Below, in pieces: positions 1,492-14,624 of a stretch of 35,203 bases of DNA (positions within the stretch are counted from its first letter, which is position 1; every line of letters starts with the position of its first letter). Source of the stretch: an uncultured Candidatus Saccharibacteria bacterium. Lineage in GTDB: Bacteria > Patescibacteriota > Doudnabacteria > UBA920. The stretch is from assembly GCA_964561655.1 (NCBI GenBank), contig CAZLQG010000003.1:1-35203 (forward strand), given 5' to 3'. The position numbers and the translations under genes were made by a program. Below the pieces are notes generated by a model. The model had not been told where the DNA came from, ran no database searches, and worked only from the letters and a program-made list of their open reading frames with translations.

Positions 1492-2238
1492 ATGCAATTT
1501 GAAGCTATTTTAAAAGGTTTGGGACTAAATGACAAAGAAATAGCAGTTTATTTAGCGCTTATAGAGCTTGGTCCTTCGCCGGTTCGCGCCATATCAACAA
1601 AGTCCAAGGTTAACAGGGGCACTACTTACGATATTCTAAAAGCTCTGCAAAACCAGGGTTTGGTTAGTTTTTATGATACCAAGTCTCACCAGTATTTTGT
1701 CGCAGAGCCGCCGGAAAAGTTAATTTTTCTTTTGGAACAAAAAAGCAATAGTATTGAAGAATTAAAATCTAAAATTCAATCCGCTCTTCCTCAAATTAGG
1801 GCAAGGTTCGAAAAGCAGGGAGGCAAGCCGGCAGTTAAGCTGTATGAAGGTTTGAGCGGAATAAGATATATTTTAGAAGATGTGCTTGAAACAATGAGTG
1901 TGAGCGATAAAAAAACTTATTACATTTATTCTTCTTCAGATGTTAGAAAAAATGTCTATTTGGCAATGAAAGACTTTAGTGCAAAGAGAATAAAGAAAAA
2001 TATTAAAGTCCAAAGTATATCTTTAGGAGAGGGAGGACAGCTTGTGGGGTTGGATGAAAGAAAATGGATGAAGTTTCCGGTTAAAGACCTTAAAGCCACT
2101 TATGAAATTATTTACAATGGGAAAGTTGCGCATATTTCTTTAGACAACGCAGAAAATCCAGTCGGCGTGGTAATTCAGAACGATGAAATTTATGAAACCC
2201 AAAAGCTAATTTTTGAAAATATTTGGAATAAGTTGTAG
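1492..2238 (+). CDS. TrmB-family transcriptional regulator
   Basis: LKGLGLNDKEIAVYLAL..RGTTYDILKALQNQGLV winged HTH, YEG motif, C-terminal effector-type domain. Confidence 0.88.
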   Translation: MQFEAILKGLGLNDKEIAVYLALIELGPSPVRAISTKSKVNRGTTYDILKALQNQGLVSFYDTKSHQYFVAEPPEKLIFLLEQKSNSIEELKSKIQSALPQIRARFEKQGGKPAVKLYEGLSGIRYILEDVLETMSVSDKKTYYIYSSSDVRKNVYLAMKDFSAKRIKKNIKVQSISLGEGGQLVGLDERKWMKFPVKDLKATYEIIYNGKVAHISLDNAENPVGVVIQNDEIYETQKLIFENIWNKL

Positions 2239-2296: not shown

Positions 2297-4156
2297 ATGT
2301 GCGGAATAGTCGGTTATATCGGTAAAAAACAGGCGGCGCCAATCCTATTGCAGGGTTTGCGCGATTTGGAATACCGCGGTTACGATAGCGCTGGGGTTGC
2401 GCTTCTTGAGAATGATAAGATAGTGCGGATTAGAGCAGTAGGTAAAGTAGAAAAACTTGCGGAGAAATTGCAGAATGACCATAATTTATCCCAAATCGGC
2501 ATAGCTCATACCCGCTGGGCAACGCACGGAGGGGTTACGGAAAAAAACGCGCATCCGCATGTGGCTCAAGATGGCAAACTCGCACTAGTGCATAATGGAA
2601 TTATTGAGAATTATCGTGAACTCAAAGAGCAATTGAGCAGAGAGGGGGTAAAGTTTGAGTCAGAGACGGACACGGAGGTGTTGGCGCATTGGATAGCAAA
2701 GAATTATGAATCAGGAATCAGAAATCAGGAATCAGACAACGGCTCTTTGTTGGCGCGTGCAGTGAAGAAAGCATTGATAAGTGTGAGAGGGACTTATGGC
2801 ATCTTAGTTATGCACGCTGACCATCCGGGCCAGCTTGTGGCGGCGCGGCTAGGAAGCCCCCTGGCCATAGGCATAGGCGAAGGCGAGTATTACATTGCCA
2901 GCGATGTCACACCAATGCTTCCTTACACCAAACAAGTGACCTTTTTGGATGATGGAGAGATAGCGTCAATCAATGAGGAAGGTTTGAAGATTGTAAATTT
3001 GCGCAATCAGATAGTTGATAAAGACATTACTCAGATTGATTGGGATCAAGAAACGGCACAAAGAGGTGGGTTTGAGCATTTTATGCTTAAAGAAATTTTT
3101 GACCAGCCCACCGTGTTTGAGGACGCTATAAGAGGGCGCACGGATATGGATGAAGGCACTGCGCATTTGGGTGGGTTGAATATGACAGCTGAGCAGATGA
3201 GAGAGATTAAAAGGATTGCGATAATTGCGGAAGGCACCGCGCGCCACGCGGGACTTATTGGCAAGTATGCCTTTGAACGTTTGGCGAATTTGCCGGTGGA
3301 AGTAGATTTTTCTTCGGAGTTTAGGTACCGCGATCCGATAGTTAATAAATCCACTTTAGTATTTGCCATTTCCCAGTCCGGAGAAACCGCTGACACGCTT
3401 ATGGCCGCGCGTGAAGCTAAAAGAAAAGGCGCGTTCGTTCGGGGCATTGTTAATGTGATTGGCTCAACAATTGCGCGGGAAAGCGGGGCAGGCACTTACA
3501 TTCACGCCGGGCCGGAACTCGCCGTGGCATCCACCAAGGCTTATACGAATATGGTGGCAATTTTGCTTTTGTACGCTTTGCAGTTTGGCCGGCTTAAGCA
3601 TACGTCAATTGCCACGGGACAAAGAATCCTACAAGCGCTTTTGGCAATCCCAGCGCAGATGAATGTTATGTTAAAGCAGAATGATGAAATTAAAAAAATT
3701 GCTAAAAAATATTCAAAATATAATAATATTCTTTTTCTTGGCCGTGGAGTAAATTATCCGGTCGCTTTGGAAGGCGCGCTTAAGCTCAAAGAAATTTCTT
3801 ATATTCACTGTGAAGCTTTTGCCGGAGGGGAAATGAAGCACGGGCCGCTGGCTTTGGTGACCAAAGACGTGCCTGTAGTGGCAATAATGACTAAAAACCA
3901 GCTTTATGAGAAAATTAAAAGTAACGTTTTAGAAGCAAAGGCGCGCGGAGCTAAAATTTTAGCAATTGCCAGTGGAGGCGATGAGGAAATTAAAGAAGTT
4001 GCGGACGACGTAATCTACGTGCCCAAAACCATGGAACTTTTAGAATCGCTTATTAACACCATCCCTTTGCAGCTGTTTGCTTACCATATTGCCGTTGCAT
4101 TGGGACGGGACGTTGACCGCCCGAGAAATTTAGCTAAAAGTGTAACAGTTGAATAA
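2297..4156 (+). CDS. glmS: glutamine-fructose-6-phosphate aminotransferase
   Basis: MCGIVG, LEYRGYDSAG, HTRWATHG, HNGIIEN, SQSGETADT, VASTKAYT, PRNLAKSVTVE. Confidence 0.98.
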   Translation: MCGIVGYIGKKQAAPILLQGLRDLEYRGYDSAGVALLENDKIVRIRAVGKVEKLAEKLQNDHNLSQIGIAHTRWATHGGVTEKNAHPHVAQDGKLALVHNGIIENYRELKEQLSREGVKFESETDTEVLAHWIAKNYESGIRNQESDNGSLLARAVKKALISVRGTYGILVMHADHPGQLVAARLGSPLAIGIGEGEYYIASDVTPMLPYTKQVTFLDDGEIASINEEGLKIVNLRNQIVDKDITQIDWDQETAQRGGFEHFMLKEIFDQPTVFEDAIRGRTDMDEGTAHLGGLNMTAEQMREIKRIAIIAEGTARHAGLIGKYAFERLANLPVEVDFSSEFRYRDPIVNKSTLVFAISQSGETADTLMAAREAKRKGAFVRGIVNVIGSTIARESGAGTYIHAGPELAVASTKAYTNMVAILLLYALQFGRLKHTSIATGQRILQALLAIPAQMNVMLKQNDEIKKIAKKYSKYNNILFLGRGVNYPVALEGALKLKEISYIHCEAFAGGEMKHGPLALVTKDVPVVAIMTKNQLYEKIKSNVLEAKARGAKILAIASGGDEEIKEVADDVIYVPKTMELLESLINTIPLQLFAYHIAVALGRDVDRPRNLAKSVTVE

Positions 4157-4160
4157 GATT

Positions 4161-4907
4161 ATGAAGAATAAATTTGAACAAACTTCACAACCTATACCGG
4201 AACAGATTAGGGAGAGAATGTTAAAGGAACCAGAATACCTTCCTTCGCATGGTGATATTAGAATTGCTTTTCCCACTCAGAAAGAATGGAGTGATTACAG
4301 AGTAGAGGTAGATTTCCACGAATTATTAAATAAAGAATTTTTGGCAGCATTGTCAGATTATCTAGCGAAAAGGATTACTGCTTACGGTGGGACTAAAGAG
4401 CATCCGGTCGTAATATTAGAAGCAGGGGCAGGCGACGGCCGTTTAACTCATTTTTTGTGCCAAGGATTGGAGGAAAGAACGAAAGGTAAATTTAGAATAG
4501 TGGCAGTAGATATAGGCGAGTGGATACCCAACCCCCCTTTTCCTGTAGAGAATATTGATTATAAAGAAGCTTTAAAAGAACATAAGCCCGCAATAGTTAT
4601 ATGTTCTTGGATGCGTCCAAGGACGGACTGGACGGCAGATTTTAGAGGGCAGAAAAGCGTTAAAGAGTATATCTTAATTGGGGAAAAATATGGCGGGGCT
4701 AGCGGTAGAGACTGGGAGACTTGGGGGGTTAAATTAAATGTAGATTCTGGAGGCCCTATAGAAAGACCAGAAACAGCTCCATATAAGGTTGATGGTTTTG
4801 AGAGTTTCGATCTTGAGGATATTAGCCAACATCAAATAGCTTGTACTGATTATCCTCCCTTGGAGCATGAACATTCACATACAGTTTCTTTTAGGAGAAA
4901 AAGTTAA
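4161..4907 (+). CDS. putative SAM-dependent methyltransferase-fold protein
   Basis: ILEAGAGDGRL motif I followed by IVAVD; ATG 4161 chosen just after the glmS stop. Confidence 0.65.
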   Translation: MKNKFEQTSQPIPEQIRERMLKEPEYLPSHGDIRIAFPTQKEWSDYRVEVDFHELLNKEFLAALSDYLAKRITAYGGTKEHPVVILEAGAGDGRLTHFLCQGLEERTKGKFRIVAVDIGEWIPNPPFPVENIDYKEALKEHKPAIVICSWMRPRTDWTADFRGQKSVKEYILIGEKYGGASGRDWETWGVKLNVDSGGPIERPETAPYKVDGFESFDLEDISQHQIACTDYPPLEHEHSHTVSFRRKS

Positions 4908-4926
4908 TTTTATTTCAATACGAATT

Positions 4927-5991
4927 ATGAAACTTTTTGAATATCAGGGAAAAGAATTATTTCAAAAATATGGGATAGCAGTTCCGAAGAGCCAGCTGAT
5001 TTCGGCGCAGACAGAGAGGGCTTCTCTTGAACCGCCATTTATTTTAAAGGCCCAGGTGCTTTCCGGAAACCGCATGAAAAAAGGCGGTATCGTAGTGGTA
5101 GATAGCGTTAGCGAGTTTGAGAATTTAAAAAATAAGATTTTTAATACCCTAATTGACGGGAGTTTGCCGGAAAAAATATTGCTGGAAGAAAAAATTGAGG
5201 CAAAAAAAGAACTGTATATATCTTTTAGCTACAGTACAGATACCCGAACGCCGGTATTTTCCATTTCCGCCAAAGGAGGGGCCGGAGTAAGCGCGGCTGA
5301 TATTTTTTCAATAGATTTAACGGAAGAACTGACAGATTCTGTCCTGCGGAATTGGCTTGATAAGACTAAAATTTTAGCTTCAGGCGGGTTACTGAAGGCC
5401 ATTCGTTCTTTATGGAAATTATTTTTAGATGAGAAGGCTTTAATTGCGGAAATTAACCCGTTGTTTGAGTTGGACAGCGACGCGTTTGTTGCCGGTGATG
5501 CCAAAATTGTTTTGGACGATAACGCGGTTAATCCGAAGTTCCGGCCCTTTTTGGATTTGGACGGTGATATTGCGGTGCTGGCATCCGGCGGCGGCGCTTC
5601 GCTTATCAACTTGGACGCTTTGCTCAAGCACGGGGGCAGGCCGGCAAATTACGTTGAATATTCCGGCAACCCGCCGGCGTCCGTGGTGGAAGAACTCACA
5701 GTCAAAGTCTTGTCTAAACCGAATTTAAAAGGCTGCTGGGTTATCGGCGGGCTTGCGAACTTTACCGACATTTATGAAACTTTGCTTGGGTTTGTGCAGG
5801 GACTTAAGAAAATTAAACCCCTGCCTTCCTATCCGATTGTTATCCGCAGAGATGGGCCAAGGCAGAAAGAAGCTTATAAAATGCTAAATGAAACGGCGAA
5901 AAAAGAGGGTTTTGACTTTCATTTATATGGACCGGAAATTTCCATGTCGGATTCGGCCGGAATAATGGTTAAATTAGCTTATAACAAATGA
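4927..5991 (+). CDS. ATP-grasp + citrate-binding subunit (ATP-citrate lyase beta / citryl-CoA synthetase large subunit)
   Basis: MKLFEYQGKELF, KAQV, EINPL (SucC/AclB ATP-grasp) plus ACL-type ASGGGAS, ANYVEYSGNP and GGLANFTDI. Confidence 0.85.
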   Translation: MKLFEYQGKELFQKYGIAVPKSQLISAQTERASLEPPFILKAQVLSGNRMKKGGIVVVDSVSEFENLKNKIFNTLIDGSLPEKILLEEKIEAKKELYISFSYSTDTRTPVFSISAKGGAGVSAADIFSIDLTEELTDSVLRNWLDKTKILASGGLLKAIRSLWKLFLDEKALIAEINPLFELDSDAFVAGDAKIVLDDNAVNPKFRPFLDLDGDIAVLASGGGASLINLDALLKHGGRPANYVEYSGNPPASVVEELTVKVLSKPNLKGCWVIGGLANFTDIYETLLGFVQGLKKIKPLPSYPIVIRRDGPRQKEAYKMLNETAKKEGFDFHLYGPEISMSDSAGIMVKLAYNK

Positions 5992-6896
5992 GTATATTAA
6001 TAGATGAAAATACAAAAGTCCTGATTCAGGGTATTACGGGCAAGGAAGGATCACGCGCAGCGGGAGAAATTTTTCGGTACGGCACGCGGGTATTAGCGGG
6101 CGTAACTCCCGGGAAAGGCGGGCAGACCACGGAAATTGGAGCGCCGGTGTTCAACAGTGTGAAGGAAGCCTTGGCAAAATTCCCGGAGATAAATACCAGT
6201 TTAATTGTTGTACCGGCGCCGTTTGTGCTGAGCGCGGCAACAGAAGCTATTGAATGTAAAATACCTTTGATAAATATTTTAACGGAAAAAGTTCCGGTAC
6301 TGGATGTGGCAAAAATTATAAGCTTGGCGCTTCGGGCAGGAGTTAAAGTTGTAGGCCCGAGTTCAGTGGGAATTATTTCTCCCAAAAAAGCAAAAATCGG
6401 CAGTATTGGCAGTTCGGAGCTGGTCCATAAAACTTTTGCTTCCGGCTTTGTGGGAGTTATGTCTAAAAGCGGCGGTATGACAGCGGAAATTTCCAGAATT
6501 TTGACAGAAAGCGGTCTGGGGCAAAGCACTGTCGTGGGGATTGGCGGTGATTTGCTTATTGGTTCGGATTTTGTAGATTTAGCCTTGGAATTTGAAAAAG
6601 ACCCGGAGACTAAAGTGCTGGTAATTTTTGGTGAAGTGGGGGGTTCCTATGAAGAAAAATTGGCGGAGGCAATGCGGCAAAAGAAAATAAAGAAGCCGGT
6701 TGTAGCGTTGATTGCCGGAAGATTTTCTGAAAAATTGCCGCAAGACACCGTGCTGGGGCATGCAGGAGCGATTGTCAGCAAGGGAAAAGGTTCGGCTAAT
6801 TCCAAAATTGCAGCTTTGGAAAAAGCAGGCGCAGTGATTGCGGAAATTCCGGAGGATATTTCTTTATTGGTTAAAAAAATTATTAATGCCAACTAA
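5988..6896 (+). CDS. CoA-binding/phosphohistidine subunit (SucD-like; citryl-CoA synthetase small subunit)
   Basis: QGITGKEG, GVTPGKGG, SKSGGM, GIGGD, GEVGG, GHAGA; ATGA overlap with the upstream gene. Confidence 0.88.
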   Translation: MSILIDENTKVLIQGITGKEGSRAAGEIFRYGTRVLAGVTPGKGGQTTEIGAPVFNSVKEALAKFPEINTSLIVVPAPFVLSAATEAIECKIPLINILTEKVPVLDVAKIISLALRAGVKVVGPSSVGIISPKKAKIGSIGSSELVHKTFASGFVGVMSKSGGMTAEISRILTESGLGQSTVVGIGGDLLIGSDFVDLALEFEKDPETKVLVIFGEVGGSYEEKLAEAMRQKKIKKPVVALIAGRFSEKLPQDTVLGHAGAIVSKGKGSANSKIAALEKAGAVIAEIPEDISLLVKKIINAN

Positions 6897-6897
6897 T

Positions 6898-7602
6898 ATG
6901 AAATTTAAAACAGCCATAAGCCAAACCAAAAACAACAAACACTATATTTGGGGAAAAGATATTTTAGAATTAATGGACAGGCATTCTTTTACTGAAGTTA
7001 TTTTTTTGTTTTTGCGCGGCAGTTTGCCAAAAAAAAATGAACAAGCACTTTTGGAAGCTGTGCTAATTGCCGCCACGGAGAACGGGATAGAAGCGCCGTC
7101 GCTGTTTGTGCCGCGCGTGGTTGCGGCCAGCGGAAATGAATTTCATGCTGCATTGGCCGCAGGCATGCTTTCCATAGGCGAAAAACACGGCGGGGCAGCA
7201 GGAAAAGCCGCAGAGCTGTTTAGCTGCGGCAAAAGCGCGGAGCAGATTGTTAAAGAAAATAAGATTATTCCCGGCTTCGGGCATAAAATGTATAAAGACG
7301 AAGACCCAAGGGCGACTTTGTTGCATCAAAAATCTAAAGATTTAGGCTTTTCGGGGAAGTATTTTGAAATTGCCAAAGAAATTGAGAAAATATTAGCGGA
7401 AAAGAAAGGCAGGGAATTGCCTTTGAATATTGACGGCGCTATGGCTTGCTGTATGTTGGAATTGGGGCTTGATGCCAAACTGGGCAAAGCCTTGTTCTTG
7501 ATCGGCCGCATTGTCGGTATGTCTGCGCACATTTTGGAAGAATACAAGCAGGGGAATAGTTATTATAGGCTGGGGGAAGATGAAATTGAATATCAAGAAT
7601 AA
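6898..7602 (+). CDS. citryl-CoA lyase (citrate synthase-like fold)
   Basis: HGGA, IPGFGH, DPR, LNIDG, GR..G..AH motifs; about 234 aa stand-alone. Confidence 0.85.
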   Translation: MKFKTAISQTKNNKHYIWGKDILELMDRHSFTEVIFLFLRGSLPKKNEQALLEAVLIAATENGIEAPSLFVPRVVAASGNEFHAALAAGMLSIGEKHGGAAGKAAELFSCGKSAEQIVKENKIIPGFGHKMYKDEDPRATLLHQKSKDLGFSGKYFEIAKEIEKILAEKKGRELPLNIDGAMACCMLELGLDAKLGKALFLIGRIVGMSAHILEEYKQGNSYYRLGEDEIEYQE

Positions 7603-7607
7603 ATTTG

Positions 7608-7673
7608 ATGAAAGCATTGGTTTTCGACTCCAGTACCACAACCTTCGGCTGGCTACGGGGTAGGCAAAAGTAA
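7608..7673 (+). other. duplicated tdh 5' end (mini-ORF MKALVFD...) with a short palindrome
   Basis: ATGAAAGCATTGGTTTTCGA (7608) vs ATGAAAGCACTAGTTTTCGA (7683); imperfect palindrome at 7627-7661. Confidence 0.7.
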
Positions 7674-7682
7674 ACCTATGTT

Positions 7683-8858
7683 ATGAAAGCACTAGTTTTC
7701 GATAAATCAAAATCTGACTGGGAAAGCTCGCGCGGGTTTGATTTGGTAAATATTTCGGAGCCAAGCATCAATGAAAAAGAAAACCCCGGCGATGCTAATT
7801 ATGTCATTATTAAAGTCCACTACGCGGGTATTTGTGGCACAGACCGGGGCATTTGGAATAGGCAAGCTTTTAAGGATGCCATTTTAAATACTATAGACGA
7901 ACAAGTAAAAAATGGCGGTAATCCTTATAGAATCATTGGCCATGAATTTTTTGGCGAAGTGGTAAAAGTGGGCAGTAAGGTAAAAAATGTAAAGCCCGGG
8001 GACTTTGTGAGCCAGGAATCTCATGTTGTTTGCAATAACTGCTATCAGTGCAAGCGGGGAGAAAAGCACGTCTGCACTAACGAGAAAATTTTGGGAATTT
8101 CTCACGACGGAGGTTTTTGCGAATATGCTAAAATCCCTTCGTATATTCTCTGGAAAACGGACACCAGTAAGATTCGTCCCGAGATAGCGGCTATGCAGGA
8201 GCCGTTTGGCAATGCAGTACACGCCGCATCTAAAGTAGACGTTAAAGGAAAAACCGTGGCAATTTTTGGCCTTGGTCCGATTGGCATGTTTTTGACAATG
8301 ATAGTTAAAGGCATGGGTGCGTTAAGCATTATTGGCATAGAACCGAACCCGGTGGCGATTGATATGGCTAAAAAGTTGGGGATTGATTACGTGATTCCAT
8401 TGAAGAAAATAGTACACAGTAAACAGTACTCAGCAAAGCCATATCAACATAATCCCGAAGTAACCGATGAGATTATGAAAATTACTAAAGGAATTGGCGT
8501 GGATGTGAGTTTTGAGATGGCAGGCTTTAATGACTCGGTGAACAATGCCATTGCCGGCGTCCGCCGCGGCGGGGAAGTTATTTTGTTCGGCTTGAAAACC
8601 GGGGATTTCGTGTTTGAAGACTATAATAAGTTGGTAATGAAAGGAATTACTATGTACTGCGTGGCGGGCAGGCGGGTTTGGGATACCTGGAAAATCACAA
8701 AAAAATTGTTTGAAGATACGGGAAATAAAATCCAGGAAAATATGTGGAATGTAATCCTGGACCAGGGCAGAGGGACAATTTTACCGATTTCGGAGTATAC
8801 TAAAGACAGGTTTGAACAAATGATGAGCGAGCACCCAAAATTATTAATACAGTTTTAA
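7683..8858 (+). CDS. tdh: Zn-dependent L-threonine 3-dehydrogenase
   Basis: GICGTD, GHE, ESHVVCNNCYQC..C structural Zn site, EPFGNAVH, GLGPIG; kbl nearby. Confidence 0.88.
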   Translation: MKALVFDKSKSDWESSRGFDLVNISEPSINEKENPGDANYVIIKVHYAGICGTDRGIWNRQAFKDAILNTIDEQVKNGGNPYRIIGHEFFGEVVKVGSKVKNVKPGDFVSQESHVVCNNCYQCKRGEKHVCTNEKILGISHDGGFCEYAKIPSYILWKTDTSKIRPEIAAMQEPFGNAVHAASKVDVKGKTVAIFGLGPIGMFLTMIVKGMGALSIIGIEPNPVAIDMAKKLGIDYVIPLKKIVHSKQYSAKPYQHNPEVTDEIMKITKGIGVDVSFEMAGFNDSVNNAIAGVRRGGEVILFGLKTGDFVFEDYNKLVMKGITMYCVAGRRVWDTWKITKKLFEDTGNKIQENMWNVILDQGRGTILPISEYTKDRFEQMMSEHPKLLIQF

Positions 8859-9436
8859 ATGGCGGGATTACAGAAGTTATCAGATCAAGCCTCTTATGCT
8901 AGTTTGGCATTAAGCAGTGTTTATTATTTGTTTGATTGTGCTAATAAGTATGGAGAAGATGCTATTCTAATTAAGAGTATAAATGAAAAAATACACCAAC
9001 TTTTGAAACTCTCGCAGCTTTTTGTATTGAATTGTTTCTGAAAGTATTGATAGGCTGTGATATTTGTTTAGAAAACAAGAATACAAAAAAGTCCACTGAA
9101 GAGATAATTAAAGATATACAGAAAAAAATGACGGGATATGGGCACGATATAAGAAAGCTTTTTGATGATAATCAATTGTTATGTAAAAAATTACAAATAA
9201 GTGTCGTATCGACGTTCCGAAATCAGTTTATTCATAAATATGAAATTTTGTTTGTAAATAATGACAGAATTGATATTAGAAATTTTGAAGCTATTAGATA
9301 TGGAGCATTTGCAAAAAGTCCAAACTATTCATACGGATCAATCAAAAATAACGACAAGATAGAAGAATTTTTAAATAATCTAAAAAACTATGTGTGGAAA
9401 GTATTTAACTACACAGCAAAAGAATTAAAAAAATAA
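8859..9436 (+). pseudogene. frameshifted AT-rich HEPN-like gene
   Basis: The two ORFs join if one A is added to the A6 run at 8986-8991; second frame reads FETLAAFCIELFLK..GHDIRKLF..IRY. Confidence 0.6.
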
Positions 9437-9440
9437 GCCT

Positions 9441-10628
9441 ATGTTTACCAATATAAAACAACAATTTGAGGAGGAACTAAAGGCTATTAAAGACGCGGGG
9501 ACGTGGAAAGAGGAGTGGGTTATTTCTTCTGTCCAGGGCGCGGAAATAGAGGCGCAAGGAAAAAAGCTTTTGAATTTTTGCGCGAATAATTATCTTGGCC
9601 TCGCATCTTCCAAAGAGTTGGCCGAGGCTGCCATTGAAGGCGTTAAAAAATACGGCTACGGTATGGCCTCTGTTAGGTTTATTTGCGGTACTTCCACGAT
9701 TCATAAAGATTTGGAAAAAGAAGTATCCAAGTTTTTCGGCACGGAAGATGCTATTTTATATACATCCTGTTTTGACGCTAACACCGGACTTTTTGAGACA
9801 GTTTTAACGGACGAAGACGCAATTTTAAGTGACCAGTTGAACCATGCGTCTATCATAGACGGCGTGCGTTTGTGCAAAGCGGAAAGGTACAGGTATGAAC
9901 ATTTAAATATGAAAGACTTGGAAGAGAAGCTTAAAGAAGCTTCGGGCAAACGAAGGAAACTGATAGCTACTGACGGCGTGTTCAGTATGGACGGTGAGAC
10001 AGCCAAAGTTAAAGAAATTTGCGATTTGGCGGAAAAGTACGGCGCAATGGTGATGGTGGACGACAGTCACGGCAGTGGTGTTTTAGGCGAAAACGGCAGA
10101 GGCGCGGTGGAAGGCTTAATGGACAAAGTGGATATTCTAACATCAACTTTTGGAAAAGCTTTGGGCGGTGCGGGCGGCGGGTTTACCGCAGGAAGGAGAG
10201 AAATTATAGATGTTTTAAGGCAAAGATCGCGTACCGCATTATTTTCCAACGCGCTTCCTCCAATGATAGCTTCAGCGGCCTTGTATGTTTTGCAGAATTT
10301 TGATTCATCGCTTTCGCATCTGCGCAAACAATTAGCCAAGAACATGGCCTACTTCAGAGAAAAAATGGAAAAATTAGGCTTTACTTTGGGAGGAGACGGT
10401 AAACATTCAATTACTCCGGTTATGCTTTATGAAGAGCGCGTGGCTACCGAAATGGCCGACAAGCTTTTTGAAAAAGGCATTTACGTAAAAGGTTTTACCT
10501 ATCCGGTGGTGTCTAAAGGCACCGCGCGTATCCGTGTGCAAATATCGGCGGTTCATACAAAAGAGCAGATGGACAAGACAGTAAGAGCGTTTAAAGTAGT
10601 GGGGAAGGAAATGAAGATAATTAATTAA
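9441..10628 (+). CDS. kbl: glycine C-acetyltransferase (2-amino-3-ketobutyrate CoA ligase)
   Basis: [59 protein letters not shown]. Confidence 0.96.
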
Positions 10629-10743: not shown

Positions 10744-11718
10744 ATGAAGAATATTGTAATAATCGGCGGGGGGACGGGGACATTTACTTTGCTTTCCGGC
10801 CTTCGCAGGTTTCCTACAAATAATTCAGTCATCGTGTCATCAGCTGATGACGGCGGAAGCACAGGCAGGTTAAGATCCGACCTCGGCGTTTTTCCTCCCG
10901 GGGATTTGCGCCAGTGCCTTTTGGGGCTTTCCTATACGGAAAAAGAAATGCAGGACTTGTTTTCCTACCGTTTTGAAAAAGGCGAGCTTAAAGGGCATAC
11001 GGTGGGCAATATAATCTTGTCGGCTTTAAGCAAAACATTGAGAGGAGTTGAACCGGCAATAAAACAGGTGGCTAAAATGTTGAACGTGCGCGGCGAGGTC
11101 GTGCCGGTGACTTTGTTTCCAACCACACTTTCGGCGACTTTAAAGAATGGAAAAAAGATTATCGGAGAGCATAATATTGATGAACCAAAAGTAAAGTCCA
11201 GGCCCCCCATTAAGAATTTAAAACTTTTACCTTCCGCTCCCGCCAACAGAAGGGCTTTGAGGTCTATAAGAAAGGCGGATGTAATTATTTTAGGCCCCGG
11301 GGACTTATTTACCAGCATTTTGCCGAATTTGCTGGTAAAAGGCGTGGGCCAGGCCATGGCCAAATCAAGAGCCAAAAAAGTTTTAGTGGTTAATTTAATG
11401 ACCAAAAAGGGGCAGACCGATGGTTTTACGGTGGCGGATTTCGTAAACACGGTCAATAGATACTTAGGCAAAGCCAAACTGGGTGCGGTCATCATTAACA
11501 GCAAAAAACCCAATTCCGGCATTTTGGCAAAATATAAAAAAGAGGGGGCGAAGTTTATAGAGCCGGACACCAGCCAGTTAAAACGACTGGGCATTATGGT
11601 TATTTCCAAAGATTTGCTCTCTAAAAACGTGTTCAGTAAAGCAAATGGGGATGCTTTGATGAGAAGTTTTCTTAGGCACGATTCAGATAAATTAGCGAAG
11701 ATTATATATAATTTGTAA
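10744..11718 (+). CDS. yvcK: YvcK/GlmR (UPF0052/CofD-like) UDP-GlcNAc-binding protein
   Basis: IGGGTG, DDGGSTGRLR, PPGDLR, GHTVGN, GPGDLFTSILPNL, RHDSDKLA. Confidence 0.93.
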   Translation: MKNIVIIGGGTGTFTLLSGLRRFPTNNSVIVSSADDGGSTGRLRSDLGVFPPGDLRQCLLGLSYTEKEMQDLFSYRFEKGELKGHTVGNIILSALSKTLRGVEPAIKQVAKMLNVRGEVVPVTLFPTTLSATLKNGKKIIGEHNIDEPKVKSRPPIKNLKLLPSAPANRRALRSIRKADVIILGPGDLFTSILPNLLVKGVGQAMAKSRAKKVLVVNLMTKKGQTDGFTVADFVNTVNRYLGKAKLGAVIINSKKPNSGILAKYKKEGAKFIEPDTSQLKRLGIMVISKDLLSKNVFSKANGDALMRSFLRHDSDKLAKIIYNL

Positions 11719-11730
11719 TTTATAAAGTTT

Positions 11731-11841
11731 TGTCATCCCGACCGAGTTCCGACTTGTCGGGACGAGTGGAGGGAACCCTTGTACGTCCTAAGAACAATAT
11801 TTAAGGGATTCCTCGACTCACTATGTTCGCTCGGAATGACA
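11731..11841. repeat. REP/RPE-like palindromic element (TGTCATCCCGA..TCGGAATGACA)
   Basis: Terminal inverted repeats with inner GAGGGAACCCTT/AAGGGATTCCTC stem; related copy at 13192-13273. Confidence 0.8.
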
Positions 11842-11852
11842 GTGGGGATTTT

Positions 11853-12194
11853 ATGAAAACCAGTATAAAAAAATCTATCAAGCAATCGAAAGCCATAAAG
11901 TTTGAAGTTAAAGATGGCAGAAAAACAATAGGCCGCGCGTATTTGTATATCATTAAAAATGATTTGCACAAAAAGCCTTACGGCCTTTTGGAGGATTTGT
12001 TTGTGGAAGAAGCCTACCGAAAGCAAGGATTGGGAACAAAATTATTGATAAAGGTGATTAGTGAAGCAAAAAAGAGAAAGTTATACAAACTCATTGGCAC
12101 GAGCAGGACTTCTAGAATGAAGGCCCATAAATTTTATGAAAAGTATGGTTTTAAAAAATACGGGTACGAGTTCCGCATGAATTTAACCAAATGA
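11853..12194 (+). CDS. GNAT acetyltransferase, GNA1-like (candidate glucosamine-phosphate N-acetyltransferase)
   Basis: GLLEDLFV..YRKQGLG..LYKLI..FYEKYGF; ATGA overlap with the GlmU-like gene. Confidence 0.8.
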   Translation: MKTSIKKSIKQSKAIKFEVKDGRKTIGRAYLYIIKNDLHKKPYGLLEDLFVEEAYRKQGLGTKLLIKVISEAKKRKLYKLIGTSRTSRMKAHKFYEKYGFKKYGYEFRMNLTK

Positions 12195-12925
12195 AAGATC
12201 AAATTATCATTCTGGCGGCGGGGAAAGGCACCCGCCTAAACCACGAAAGCCTGCCTAAGGTTTTAGTGCTTTTTAGGGGACAGCCTTTAATTAAGCATTT
12301 GCTTTTAAGAATTTCCAAAATCATCCAAAGCACAAAACCAATAGTGGTTGTGGGCTTTATGGCAGAAAAAGTAAAAGCCACGTTGGGAAACAGGTTTGAG
12401 TACGTTTTGCAGGAACCGCAGCTTGGCACCGCGCATGCCGTGCGCGCGGCCAAGGAAAAAATAAAAGCGGAAAACGTTTTGGTTTTGTATGGCGATATGC
12501 CTTTTATTACGGAAGGTAGCTTAAGGAAACTAATCAGAATGCATCACGATGAAAAGGCAAACCTTTCCATGTTCACCGCCACCGTGCCGAATTTTGAAAA
12601 TGAATTTGCAGGCTTGTTGCATTATGGCAGAATAATCCGCAGTTTCAACAAAGAATTTGTTAAAATTACGGAATTTAAAGACGCAAGCGACGCAGAGAAA
12701 AACATTAAAGAACTAAATACCGGAATTTATATGTTTAATTCGCAATGGCTGTGGAAAAACATAAAAAAAATTAAAAATAAAAATGTGCAGAAAGAATATT
12801 ATCTTACTGACATCGTGGAAATTGCCATAGAGCAGAAAGAAAAAATATATTCGCTTGCCATAGATCCCAAAGAGGTGATTGGTATAAACAGCAAGGAAGA
12901 CTTGGAGAGAGTGGAATCCCGTTAG
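12191..12925 (+). CDS. glmU: GlmU-like N-acetylglucosamine-1-phosphate uridylyltransferase, N-terminal domain only
   Basis: ILAAGKGTR, LPKVL, QLGTAHA, YGDMP, YGRI, ELNTGIY, EYYLTD, GIN; ends before the hexapeptide acetyltransferase domain. Confidence 0.88.
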   Translation: MKDQIIILAAGKGTRLNHESLPKVLVLFRGQPLIKHLLLRISKIIQSTKPIVVVGFMAEKVKATLGNRFEYVLQEPQLGTAHAVRAAKEKIKAENVLVLYGDMPFITEGSLRKLIRMHHDEKANLSMFTATVPNFENEFAGLLHYGRIIRSFNKEFVKITEFKDASDAEKNIKELNTGIYMFNSQWLWKNIKKIKNKNVQKEYYLTDIVEIAIEQKEKIYSLAIDPKEVIGINSKEDLERVESR

Positions 12926-12991
12926 AAGTCCAATGTGCTTATAACACTTTGGCAATCCCGACTTTAGGTCGGGGTTTACTTCTAAGGGGAT
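12916..12991. repeat. small inverted-repeat element (CCCGTTAGAA family)
   Basis: ATCCCGTTAGAAGT / ACTTCTAAGGGGAT (1 mismatch); internal CCCGAC-TTTAG-GTCGGG hairpin; supplies the glmU TAG stop. Confidence 0.65.
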
Positions 12992-13038
12992 GTGGATATC
13001 ATACGCCCGCCCCTCTTAAGTAAGAGGGGATTTTTATT

Positions 13039-13080
13039 TTGACAGTATGCTGTATGATATTATATGATAAAGTATGATAA
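13039..13080 (+). promoter_or_regulatory. sigma70 promoter overlapped by three TATGATA repeats
   Basis: TTGACA (13039-13044), 18 nt, TATGAT (13063-13068); TATGATA at 13053, 13063 and 13073. Confidence 0.7.
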
Positions 13081-13191
13081 ATAATCAAAAAAAATCAAAC
13101 CAAGTTAAAAAGTAGGTGCTGGGGCCGTAGATTAAATTTTACGGCCCGGCCACCTGCTTTTGAAACTCGGTGGTAGACGACAGGAACTTAG

Positions 13192-13273: not shown

Positions 13274-13385
13274 AAATAAATTTTTGTCATCTGCCACTGC
13301 CCTGTTAGTTCAGAGGGGCCAGAGGCAGTTGTACACCCCAAATTCAAGGAGGGGTGATGATTTTAGGGAGACAAGGAGAACCGGA

Positions 13386-14624
13386 ATGGTAGAGTTGGGA
13401 ACTTTCCCGAGAATTGATTCACTTCCGCCATACGTATTGGCGGAGGTAACCAGAGAGAAACAAAAATACCGTCATGATCAGCTAGATATCATCGATTTTG
13501 GAATGGGTATACCTGACGGTCCCACACCTCAAATCGTGGTGGACAAGCTGAAGACGGCGGTTGACGACAAACGCAATCATCGCTATTCACAATCCATAGG
13601 GATCCCCATGTTGCGGGTTGAGATAGCGAAACGCTATCAGGCTCGCTACGGCGTCAGATTGGATCCGGATAGCGAAGCCATCGTCAGCATCGGTGCCAAG
13701 GACGCATTGGCCCACCTGCTAATTGCCGTTCTGAATGCCGGCGATGGCGTGGCGACACATTGCCCTTCATATCCTATCCATATGCAGGGGGTGGTATTTG
13801 CCGGTGGCGTGCCGTTTCTGCTGGAGATGCCGAGTCCAGATGAATTTCTTAATCGGCTTCACGACCTGTACCGGATGTTGGCGTGCAAGCCGCGCATGAT
13901 CCTCATCTCTTTCCCGCACAATCCCACAACCCAATGTGTGGAGTTGGACTTCTTTAAGGAGATAGTCCGGTTGGCGCATCAGCATGGTACCATGGTCGTC
14001 CACGACTTCGCCTACGCGGACCTGGGCTTTGACGGTTACCAACCGCCGAGCATGCTTCAAGTCCCGGGAGCGAAGGAAGTGGGCGTGGAGATTTTCTCTT
14101 TGTCCAAGAGCTTCAACATGTCGGGTTGGCGCGTGGGGTTTTGCATTGGCAACCTGAGGATGGTGGAGGCACTGCGGAAGATCAAGAGTTATTTGGATTA
14201 TGGTGTATTCCAACCTATCCAGATCGCGTCCATCATTGCCATGCGACACTGCGAAGAGGACACCCGGCGCATTTGTGCCACGTACCAGAGGCGGCGGGAT
14301 GTGCTCGTTGAAGGACTCAACTCAATCGGCTGGCCAGTTGATAAGCCTAGGGGAACAATGTTTGTCTGGGCACCGATACCAGAGTCTTTTCAAAATATGG
14401 GCTCACTACAGTTCTCGAAGCTTCTTCTGGAGAAGGCGCTTGTGGCTGTTTCCCCTGGTGTGGGTTTTGGACCGTTTGGTGAAGGGTACGTTCGTTTCGC
14501 GCTGATTGAGAACTTTCATCGCACGAGACAAGCCCTCCACAATCTCAAAACAACCTTCAGAGGCTGGGAAAGCCCGCATCCGCGGCGACGACGAAAGCAA
14601 GCCGCTATCGCAGTCTCCACTTGA
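13386..14624 (+). CDS. alaC: class I/II PLP aminotransferase, AlaC/DapL-like
   Basis: LPPYV, IDFGMG.PD, YPIH, FPHNPT, HDFAY, SLSKSFNMSGWRVGF, KSYLDYG; ATG preceded by AAGGAG. Confidence 0.82.
   Translation: MVELGTFPRIDSLPPYVLAEVTREKQKYRHDQLDIIDFGMGIPDGPTPQIVVDKLKTAVDDKRNHRYSQSIGIPMLRVEIAKRYQARYGVRLDPDSEAIVSIGAKDALAHLLIAVLNAGDGVATHCPSYPIHMQGVVFAGGVPFLLEMPSPDEFLNRLHDLYRMLACKPRMILISFPHNPTTQCVELDFFKEIVRLAHQHGTMVVHDFAYADLGFDGYQPPSMLQVPGAKEVGVEIFSLSKSFNMSGWRVGFCIGNLRMVEALRKIKSYLDYGVFQPIQIASIIAMRHCEEDTRRICATYQRRRDVLVEGLNSIGWPVDKPRGTMFVWAPIPESFQNMGSLQFSKLLLEKALVAVSPGVGFGPFGEGYVRFALIENFHRTRQALHNLKTTFRGWESPHPRRRRKQAAIAVST

Follow-up and report, generated by a model that had tools for sequence, protein, structure and literature searches.

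At positions 4927 to 7602 of the 35,203-nucleotide stretch of DNA analysed here (hereafter the window; forward strand of contig CAZLQG010000003.1, from an uncultured Candidatus Saccharibacteria bacterium) lie three adjacent, co-directional genes which, judging from their domains and closest relatives, very probably encode citryl-CoA synthetase (CCS) together with citryl-CoA lyase (CCL), the previously described variant of ATP-dependent citrate cleavage that uses two enzymes. Gene A (4927..5991, +) specifies a ccsA-like large subunit of 354 residues, assigned from Pfam, profile matches to PDB entries and alignment; gene B (5988..6896, +) a ccsB-like small subunit of 302 residues, assigned from Pfam, NCBIfam and PDB profile matches; and gene C (6898..7602, +) a putative citryl-CoA lyase (ccl) of 234 residues, assigned from NCBIfam model NF004869 and PDB profile matches. 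The best explanation of the locus as a whole, to which we give somewhat more credence than not, would be that this CCS/CCL operon was laterally inserted into a cluster of genes for the supply of UDP-N-acetylglucosamine (UDP-GlcNAc), where it supplies acetyl-CoA for amino-sugar acetylation.

Three genes with a stand-alone lyase

The mechanical open reading frame (ORF) of A opens at 4867; we place the start at ATG 4927 because the invariant N-terminus of the homologues (M1, E5 and K9 in 30 aligned relatives) fits there. A and B overlap by 4 nucleotides (nt; ATGA), B stops with TAA at 6894-6896 and C starts with ATG at 6898. The original prediction, made from the letters alone, had drawn attention to this separate lyase gene while allowing that the split might be an assembly error. 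Contigs of public lake-water metagenome runs, X1 record 7 (covering 6613-8332) and X2 record 13 (covering 6782-7076), read through the B/C junction (6894-6898) showing 0 differences and not a single indel, and the A/B junction is likewise crossed without indels (X1 record 4 and X4 record 26). X1 is possibly a sample of the genome's own assembly, so that the contigs are weak as independent support. A stronger argument comes from related loci (locus statistics throughout refer to the best 80 of 471 loci with a relative of A): B and C are separate ORFs in 72 of the 72 loci where both were called and fused in none of them (0/72). Across these 72 loci the gap between B and C has a median of 4 nt; it measures at most 30 nt in 49/72, and exceeds 200 nt or contains intervening ORFs in 12/72. 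The split is no assembly artefact, and the three-gene arrangement that was originally described holds. A promoter/terminator scan of the window returned 30 against 25.5 and 11 against 13.5 in the shuffled expectation, that is, no excess.

Domain content and closest relatives

The large subunit combines a SucC-type ATP-grasp_2 domain (Pfam, 92.1 bits) with an ATP-citrate lyase (ACL)-type Citrate_bind domain (84.4 bits), and the two-subunit domain make-up of A and B recurs in 33 Citrate_bind representatives. Searched against the PDB as a single sequence, A has its nearest match in CcsA (6hxq_B, 137.6 bits, versus 108.3 for Thermus SucC and 101.8 for Chlorobium AclB), and the family profile likewise scores CcsA of Hydrogenobacter thermophilus (335.6 bits) above AclB (272.2) and Thermus SucC (255.4). 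A fails both NCBIfam SucC models (151.4 bits at a cut-off of 370 and 144.9 at a cut-off of 375.55), its C-terminal domain being Citrate_bind and not Ligase_CoA, and it fails the NCBIfam malate-CoA ligase model by a wide margin as well. Citrate_synth_N, the Pfam family of the ACL-type ATP-grasp, was not reported for A; its relatives reach 36-72 bits at a cut-off of 83, whereas 261-280 bits are attained by two genuine AclB proteins from the window's phylum.

In keeping with what had been read from the letters, a SucC-like start is followed in A by the ACL-type motifs GGGAS, ANYxEYSGNP and ANFT. These correspond to G221-G222-G223-A-S225, A240-N-Y-x-E244-x-S-G247-N-P249 and A277-N278-F-T280, and they are invariant or nearly so in 30 aligned relatives. 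In the printed alignment GGGAS, ANFTD and RRxGP are common to A and Chlorobium AclB, and the printed profile alignments show GgvANfTdi and ViRRdGP in the A family as in AclB, where SucC is different and gapped. We take ANFT, RRxGP and GGGAS to be citrate-binding motifs by analogy with human ACLY structures, in which Asn346, Thr348 and Arg379 presumably contact citrate. The numbering of these three residues falls within such motifs in the portion of the human ACLY paper that we drew on, which does not itself state the contact with citrate (PMC13670275).

Note that A is a short form. Some 30-40 residues between the ATP-grasp and citrate-binding domains are missing (alignment A1, columns ~275-311; between residues 204 and 207 of A), a segment which is present in the long forms of the candidate phyla radiation (CPR) and DPANN, in CcsA, AclB and SucC, and which matches approximately residues 223-251 of CcsA. 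Despite this deletion, the AlphaFold2 model of A has a mean confidence (pLDDT) of 93.1.

The small subunit carries CoA_binding, Ligase_CoA and Succ_CoA_lig domains (Pfam), and its phosphohistidine motif, G257-H258-A259-G260, is invariant in 52 sequences. It is, as had been predicted, very SucD-like: the B profile scores 370.1 bits to the alpha subunit of an archaeal succinyl-CoA synthetase (SCS; 2yv2), ahead of CcsB (297), E. coli SucD (292) and AclA (226), and as a single sequence B scores 269.8 bits to SCS alpha versus 199.6 to CcsB. In the printed alignment it is 47-50% identical, by eye, to archaeal SCS alpha, and with 285 bits it stays below the SucD cut-off of TIGR01019 (353.2). No SucC partner for B was found in the window's genome (G000; 830,723 bp in 45 contigs, 95.5% complete).

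The third gene matches the C-terminal part of Citrate_synt (Pfam, 145.6 bits, profile positions 164-355 of 357), as would befit a truncated citrate-synthase fold. Against the PDB it scores 165.2 bits to CCL (6hxp_A) as a single sequence and 307.8 as a profile, with the best citrate synthase standing at 158.2 bits and the lyase module of ACL at 132.7 in the profile search. H97, H129 and D179 of C are invariant in 52 sequences, and we take them to be the counterparts of His274, His320 and Asp375 of citrate synthase.

Three observations weigh against the identification of these genes as CCS/CCL. First, C passes the NCBIfam model for citryl-CoA lyase with 214.8 bits at a cut-off of 212, a margin of only 2.8 bits. 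Second, on the scores given above B is a generic SucD-type alpha subunit and not specifically CcsB-like. Third, a Foldseek search with the model of A returned Thermus SCS beta as the top match and ranked SCS beta, CcsA and ACL together, without discriminating between them. The profile comparisons nevertheless place the nearest solved relatives of A and C in CcsA (335.6 bits) and CCL (307.8 bits), and what the original prediction had put forward as an unfused ACL of intermediate architecture corresponds to the already described pair of CCS and CCL.

An amino-sugar cluster with an apparent insertion

The genes in this part of the window follow the order TrmB regulator, GlmS, methyltransferase-like gene, A, B, C, Tdh, small ORF, Kbl, YvcK/GlmR, GNAT and the uridylyltransferase half of GlmU. 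The conserved cluster opens with the TrmB-family regulator (1492..2238, +; Pfam TrmB 54.1 bits), which is syntenic in relatives. The left flank of the insertion is formed by GlmS, glutamine-fructose-6-phosphate aminotransferase (2297..4156, +), recognised by its identity to the GlmS of relatives; a GlmS-homologous neighbour in one related locus (L002) has SIS and GATase domains. On the right flank, an L-threonine 3-dehydrogenase-like zinc alcohol dehydrogenase (Tdh; 7683..8858, +), which scores 257.3 bits against NF003808 and thus falls below the cut-off of 380, lies beside Kbl in relatives, and is followed by Kbl, glycine C-acetyltransferase or 2-amino-3-ketobutyrate CoA ligase (9441..10628, +; NF005394, 590.8 bits at a cut-off of 460). 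Together, Tdh and Kbl make up a route from threonine to acetyl-CoA and glycine.

Downstream of Kbl the window encodes a YvcK/GlmR-type UDP-GlcNAc-binding protein (10744..11718, +; TIGR01826, 319.8 bits at a cut-off of 196); in Bacillus subtilis, according to the portions of two papers that we drew on, GlmR (YvcK) is a UDP-GlcNAc-binding activator of GlmS (PMC7525490, PMC6171935). A GNAT acetyltransferase of 123 residues (11823..12194, +; Pfam Acetyltransf_1, 54.1 bits) then overlaps by 4 nt with a gene of 244 residues for the N-terminal (uridylyltransferase) half of GlmU only (12191..12925, +; TIGR01173 profile positions 2-234 of 452). In most of the relatives examined, the pair of GNAT and GlmU N-terminal half is found in synteny. 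The GlmU search of G000 matches positions 2-240 only and revealed no acetyltransferase half in any part of the genome. Because this half was found nowhere and because the GNAT gene overlaps the GlmU half, the GNAT protein is a likely candidate for the glucosamine-phosphate N-acetyltransferase. It looks to have taken the place of the acetyltransferase domain with its left-handed beta-helix, in the manner of the eukaryotic GNA1 route.

How does this arrangement compare with that in relatives? In the Kbl neighbourhoods of 11 relatives, the order GlmS-Tdh-Kbl-YvcK is found in nine, mostly followed by GNAT and the N-terminal half of GlmU; of the remaining two, one has Tdh-Kbl-YvcK without GlmS in reach and one Tdh-Kbl alone. 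GlmS and Tdh are 3-505 nt apart in eight of the nine relatives and 3.5 kb apart in the window, where the space is filled by the gene at 4149-4907 and A-B-C. Gene A was found in none (0/40) of the genomes of relatives belonging to the window's family or order. Between the window's GlmS and that of eight relatives the identity is 70-78%, and for a further relative (G007, L092) it is 52%; to the GlmS of those Wildermuthbacteria-type loci in which the closest A (64%) and B (72-76%) reside, it is about 50%. Since none of the 40 relatives has A, the GlmS-Tdh gap is short in eight of the nine relatives and the GlmS identities contrast in this way, the simplest reading is that the A-B-C operon would be a lateral insertion from a Wildermuthbacteria-like donor.

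The gene at 4149..4907 (+; likely start ATG 4161) appears to have been inserted together with the operon. Its Atlas structure neighbours suggest a class I SAM-methyltransferase-like fold, which we treat as a lead only. It has no significant Pfam or NCBIfam match, and at the thresholds used it was found neither in the clusters of the 11 relatives nor in the 80 related loci. At the opposite border, directly after the ccl stop, a 25-nt near-copy (84%) of the 5' end of Tdh occupies 7603..7627 (+; direct repeat D4, partner 7678-7702). It lies 75 nt upstream of the real Tdh start, codes for seven residues identical to the first seven of Tdh and forms the beginning of a 22-codon ORF (7603-7673). Recombination at the right border may have left this near-copy behind as a scar of the insertion, although chance is also possible. 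A further repeat at both insert borders (D2, 36 nt, 4147-4182 and 7578-7613, 78%) was considered as a target-site duplication and rejected, as it is mostly two similar stop-and-start contexts.

Two of the relatives show other genes within the cluster. In G007 (L092, G007:C4) the GlmS-Tdh junction holds, at 4300-7176, an unrelated NUDIX protein, a PAS histidine kinase and a response regulator, and an EamA-family transporter gene lies between Tdh and Kbl (8322-9194). In G005 (L102, G005:C5, ~11171-13177) a gene for an AMP-forming acetyl-CoA synthetase (AcsA) lies between Kbl and YvcK of the same cluster; Kbl there seems to be split into two ORFs of 195 and 242 residues.

Spread of the operon and its recurrent neighbours

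Homologues of A are numerous. Of 8000 candidates scored in a word-indexed search, 6587 proteins reached E<=1e-10; the top 120 of these are 53-67% identical to A, about 350 residues long and derive from Wildermuth-, Andersen-, Yanofsky-, Portnoy-, Sungbacteria and similar groups; an exhaustive search of 50%-identity representatives gave 3673 matches at E<=0.001 and 123 at E<=1e-30. Public records call these proteins "hypothetical protein", "ATP citrate lyase citrate-binding domain-containing protein" or, at JGI, "succinyl-CoA synthetase beta subunit", which bears out the earlier suspicion that such a system would easily be mis-annotated. In a collection of species-representative genomes, 471 of 487 pattern matches encode a relative of A. 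All of the best 80 loci are titled as, or were taken in this analysis to be, CPR or DPANN, some of the titles being placeholder names. Within the CPR, the short large subunit occurs in Parcubacteria-type genomes and a long form of ~380-410 residues in Microgenomates. In an even sample of the window's phylum, a Citrate_bind protein is encoded by 28 of 401 genomes, including G000, versus 0 of 14 control genomes.

Searched with tblastn, the 80 loci contain A in 80, B in 79 and C in 75 cases, with the order A-B-C kept in 75/80. Four of the five loci without C end at a contig edge inside or just after B. In the fifth (L009, 9063-11255; Yanofskybacteria title), unrelated ORFs come after an intact large-subunit gene, and neither B nor C appears up to the end of the contig.

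To describe the surroundings of the operon, ORFs were called in the 80 loci and the four ORFs on each side were clustered; only clusters with at least three members were annotated, a restriction that cuts both ways. An amino-sugar pathway gene or an acetyl/acyltransferase gene lies within four ORFs of the operon in 50 of the 80 loci, which are kin and therefore do not represent 50 independent events. Applied to G000, these criteria pick out 55 of 782 genes (7%) with a neighbour of this kind within four genes; this control is one genome, so that the comparison is an indication and not a statistic. The most frequent neighbours are GlmS (20 loci, or 23 by tblastn), YvcK (15 loci) and a GlmU-like nucleotidyltransferase/acetyltransferase of 428 residues (15 loci), followed by two GNAT families (7 and 5 loci), a DegT aminotransferase (6), a PseB/CapD dehydratase (5), an epimerase/dehydratase (5), MBOAT (4) and NeuB (3). 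These neighbours occur in at least five architectures (in which ABC stands for the operon): GlmS-ABC-YvcK-GlmU; GlmS-ABC-GNAT-x-YvcK; ABC inside nonulosonic-acid-type clusters; MBOAT beside ABC; and, in Microgenomates, Nramp-GlmU-ABC.

Metabolic partners in the genome

The original prediction had held that the enzyme would probably not serve to fix carbon via the reverse tricarboxylic acid (TCA) cycle, and searches of G000 agree: no aconitase, malate/lactate dehydrogenase (Ldh_1_N) or second citrate synthase was found. As regards the reductive TCA cycle, pyruvate:ferredoxin oxidoreductase (PFOR) was also absent, with isocitrate dehydrogenase, fumarate reductase and 2-oxoglutarate:ferredoxin oxidoreductase not among the enzymes searched for. 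Because no TCA or reverse-TCA partners were found in G000, the operon is an orphan relative to these pathways there. Further searches of G000 returned no acetate kinase, AcsA or Pta, no PEPCK_ATP, malic enzyme or PEPcase, and, for ADP-forming acetyl-CoA synthetase (ACD), a match to gene B alone. The sole other recognisable source of acetyl-CoA in G000 is Kbl together with the Tdh-like dehydrogenase.

We also compared 44 operon-bearing genomes with 40 operon-free relatives, bearing in mind that the two sets are different lineages. PFOR is present in 3/44 operon-bearing and 4/40 operon-free genomes; AcsA exceeds its cut-off in 2/44 and 4/40, respectively, and Kbl in 2/44 and 10/40. ACD-like proteins occur in 2/44 operon-bearing genomes, with none over the cut-off in the 40 others. 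Pta, for which the comparison covered the operon-free relatives only, was found in 1/40 of them, and aconitase, for which it covered the operon-bearing genomes only, in 4/44. Taken together, an alternative source (PFOR, AcsA, Kbl or ACD) is present in 6/44 operon-bearing genomes, and a source (PFOR, Acs, Pta or Kbl) in 15/40 operon-free relatives. That alternative sources are rarer where the operon is present (6/44 versus 15/40) fits a role in acetyl-CoA supply, but counts as no more than a tendency, since the sets are different lineages.

Proposed role and alternative explanations

What, then, might an orphan citrate-cleaving operon do in such a genome? In the mechanism that we propose, ATP would phosphorylate His258 of the SucD-like subunit B, the phosphate would pass to citrate held in the citrate-binding domain of A, CoA would displace the phosphate to give citryl-CoA, and C would split citryl-CoA into acetyl-CoA and oxaloacetate. 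The citrate would be drawn from the host or the surroundings, and the acetyl-CoA would feed the GNAT/GlmU step and other sugar acetylations, alongside the threonine route through Tdh and Kbl. Judging by gene context, the chances are even or slightly better that the operon does run in this cleavage direction, turning citrate into acetyl-CoA for amino-sugar N-acetylation. It had been suggested from the sequence that the enzyme was probably catabolic; because its neighbours are amino-sugar enzymes that consume acetyl-CoA, we favour an anabolic supply of acetyl-CoA instead. The AcsA gene gives the G005 cluster an acetyl-CoA source of another kind, and favours the supply reading. So does the finding that 38/44 operon-bearing genomes show none of PFOR, AcsA, Kbl and ACD, a count in which Pta, pyruvate dehydrogenase and pyruvate formate-lyase were not searched for.

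Beyond the kinship of the loci mentioned above, several points speak against such a role. None of the listed neighbour types is present in 30 of the 80 loci. Searches of G000 for the citrate carriers CitMHS, DASS, 2HCT and TctA found none, nor was an oxaloacetate-using enzyme found in G000 besides unspecific class I aminotransferases, the lone candidate being the class I aminotransferase at 13284-14624. Of the 40 relatives, 25 lack the operon as well as PFOR, Acs, Pta and Kbl, and such cells evidently manage without a recognised source of acetyl-CoA. Finally, the GlmS-Tdh junction may simply be prone to insertion, the insert of G007 being unconnected to acetyl-CoA.

Of the alternatives, the one that survives best, though we consider it unlikely, reverses the direction of the reaction. 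Imagine that acetyl-CoA derived from threonine by Tdh and Kbl condensed with oxaloacetate on CCL, and that CCS then made citrate and ATP by substrate-level phosphorylation. The ACL reaction is near equilibrium, the operon is placed directly upstream of a source of acetyl-CoA, Tdh-Kbl, and no Pta-Ack or ACD was found in G000 that could harvest the thioester; moreover, the ATP-citrate lyase of Desulfobacter postgatei (Moller et al., 1987, going by the title) is reportedly a precedent for substrate-level phosphorylation. However, this direction needs stoichiometric oxaloacetate, for which no source was found in G000 (PEPcase, PEPCK_ATP, malic enzyme or Ldh_1_N). Kbl is not over its cut-off in 42/44 operon-bearing genomes, and the 38/44 genomes without any of the sources tested would have nothing to harvest. 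The recurrent neighbours of the operon, furthermore, consume acetyl-CoA and do not produce it.

A second alternative concerns architecture. The three products might form a non-covalent, ACL-like holoenzyme that channels citryl-CoA, and might thus represent an evolutionary bridge from free CCS and CCL to fused ACL. The tight coupling of B and C (a median gap of 4 nt, and at most 30 nt in 49/72 loci) is compatible with this idea, as is the presence of fused two-subunit ACLs in the same phylum. Four loci picked among ten top-scoring matches (L088-L091, in genomes G109, G085, G344 and G167) carry a canonical ACL of two subunits, in which the alpha subunit is a fusion of 590-609 residues; A is only 27-31% identical to their AclB. 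It therefore appears from these sequences that fused and unfused citrate-cleavage systems coexist in the window's phylum.

A tree of large subunits bears on the same question (IQ-TREE quick search, LG+C20+F+G4, 87 sequences, rooted on eight Ligase_CoA, SucC-type, representatives, with SH-aLRT as the only branch support). All 67 rows of the Citrate_bind type fall into one clade (SH-aLRT 99), including P0176, which has no Citrate_bind match at E<=1e-8, and A belongs to a mostly short-form clade of 18 rows (98), beside a Wildermuthbacteria sequence. Four AclB rows are nested within the Citrate_bind clade on a very long branch, with a support of 85 at the immediate node and 97 for the enclosing clade of 20 rows. 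Three of 150 representatives (P0204, P0203 and P0264) were considered as orthologues of H. thermophilus CcsA and rejected, as all scored best to Thermus SucC. Because these three match SucC and not CcsA, the tree has no Aquificae anchor. The nesting of AclB fits CCS-type enzymes being a grade that gave rise to ACL, with the reservation that a long-branch placement in a quick search is unreliable. It is likewise in line with the published proposal of an origin of ACL by fusion of CCS and CCL (Aoshima 2007, as cited in the part of bioRxiv 10.1101/2022.10.25.513756 that we drew on). The original prediction had placed the window's genes as a possible intermediate between SCS, CCS/CCL and ACL; the large-subunit tree, though it nests AclB within a CCS-type clade, does not single out the window's gene set. 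Against the holoenzyme stand the 12/72 loci in which other ORFs or more than 200 nt part B from C, and the AclB position itself, which rests on a long branch with an SH-aLRT of only 85 at its immediate node in a quick search without Aquificae sequences. We therefore regard it as improbable.

Least probable of all is a different substrate, with A and B ligating succinate, malate, a methylcitrate-type or another hydroxy-acid, C handling the matching acyl-CoA and "citrate" being an inherited label: B does score higher to SCS alpha than to CcsB, the Citrate_bind score of A (84 bits) is far below the ~290 of canonical AclB in the same phylum, and A lacks the 30-40 residue segment of SucC, CcsA and AclB, yet ANFT, RRxGP and GGGAS are common to Chlorobium AclB and not found in the printed SucC alignments, C scores 307.8 bits to a characterised CCL versus 158 to any citrate or methylcitrate synthase, and A stays far below the cut-offs of the SucC and malate-CoA ligase models.

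Returning to citrate cleavage for acetyl-CoA supply, a wider proposal follows the same lines, which we advance tentatively and rate somewhat below an even chance. CPR and DPANN might use a minimal CCS/CCL as the prokaryotic counterpart of cytosolic ACLY, with citrate from the host or the community as acetyl currency, and the operon could be a laterally mobile plug-in module in UDP-GlcNAc, nonulosonic-acid and O-acyl-transfer clusters, interchangeable there with Tdh-Kbl or Acs. Genomes of less than 1 Mb without pyruvate oxidation must still acetylate glucosamine for their wall, and the origin of the acetyl-CoA is rarely addressed. If the proposal were true, citrate would be a specific metabolite that these episymbionts take from their hosts. 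It would also explain the presence of the "carbon-fixation marker genes" aclAB, ccsAB and ccl in genomes that do not fix carbon, with a bearing on metagenomic surveys in which such genes are counted as reverse-TCA potential, and would provide a compact, easily expressed CCS/CCL for the biochemistry of ACL evolution. If the reading of the context were wrong, the finding would be one more mis-annotated CCS/CCL.

Comparison with known systems

CcsAB and Ccl of H. thermophilus (PDB 6hxq, 6hxp), the nearest solved relatives of A and C, are likewise three polypeptides with the same domain content, and the phosphohistidine motif and the H/H/D residues of the lyase are conserved. The window's proteins (354, 302 and 234 residues) are shorter than the corresponding PDB chains (429, 353 and 268 residues). 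In H. thermophilus the setting is the reductive TCA cycle, whereas in the window it is an amino-sugar cluster, in a genome where TCA enzymes were not found; the H. thermophilus ccl gene presumably lies apart from ccsAB. In Leptospirillum ferriphilum, according to the part of the source that we drew on, ccsA, ccsB and ccl are also separate genes in one cluster (ccsA-ccsB-acnA / ccl-frdAB-sucCD; PMC2607301). There, however, they lie amid reverse-TCA genes in two transcription units 474 nt apart (PMC2607301), in contrast to the tight operon of the window and the lack of any aconitase match in its genome.

AclBA, as in Chlorobium limicola (6hxj), shares its chemistry and modules with the window's set, and the ANFT, RRxGP and GGGAS motifs are common to both. 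It differs in that the SucD-like and lyase modules are fused (590-609 residues in L088-L091) and that its ATP-grasp belongs to the ACL type, whereas B and C are separate and the ATP-grasp of A is of the SucC type. Eukaryotic cytosolic ACLY is a single polypeptide of 1101 residues, with distant homology to the window's proteins (51-155 bits). It would be alike in its proposed role, the conversion of citrate to acetyl-CoA for acetylation and biosynthesis outside the TCA cycle (for ACLY, as described in the portion of PMC13670275 that we drew on), with the role in the window being suggested by gene context only. SucCD, finally, has the fold and the phosphohistidine mechanism in common with A and B, with A carrying Citrate_bind in place of the Ligase_CoA domain of SucC.

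CCS and CCL homologues mis-annotated as SCS or citrate synthase have been reported from DPANN and CPR, where they group with CCS/CCL in trees (bioRxiv 10.1101/2022.10.25.513756, in the part available to us), and aclAB is described as enriched in Saccharimonadia in the portion of a further paper that we drew on (PMC12577380). The CCS/CCL architecture and its presence in CPR/DPANN are therefore known already, and what is added here is the genomic context. In the open-access literature on citrate cleavage in CPR, Patescibacteria and DPANN, as far as its accessible portions go, we found no paper linking a CCS/CCL operon to amino-sugar acetylation. The conserved association of the operon with acetyl-CoA-consuming cell-envelope genes in ultra-small genomes furnishes a hypothesis that is specific and testable.

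Upstream sequence

The amino-sugar cluster of the window is directly preceded, at 1-748, by the 3' end of a bacterial gene for 23S rRNA, along with one for 5S rRNA.

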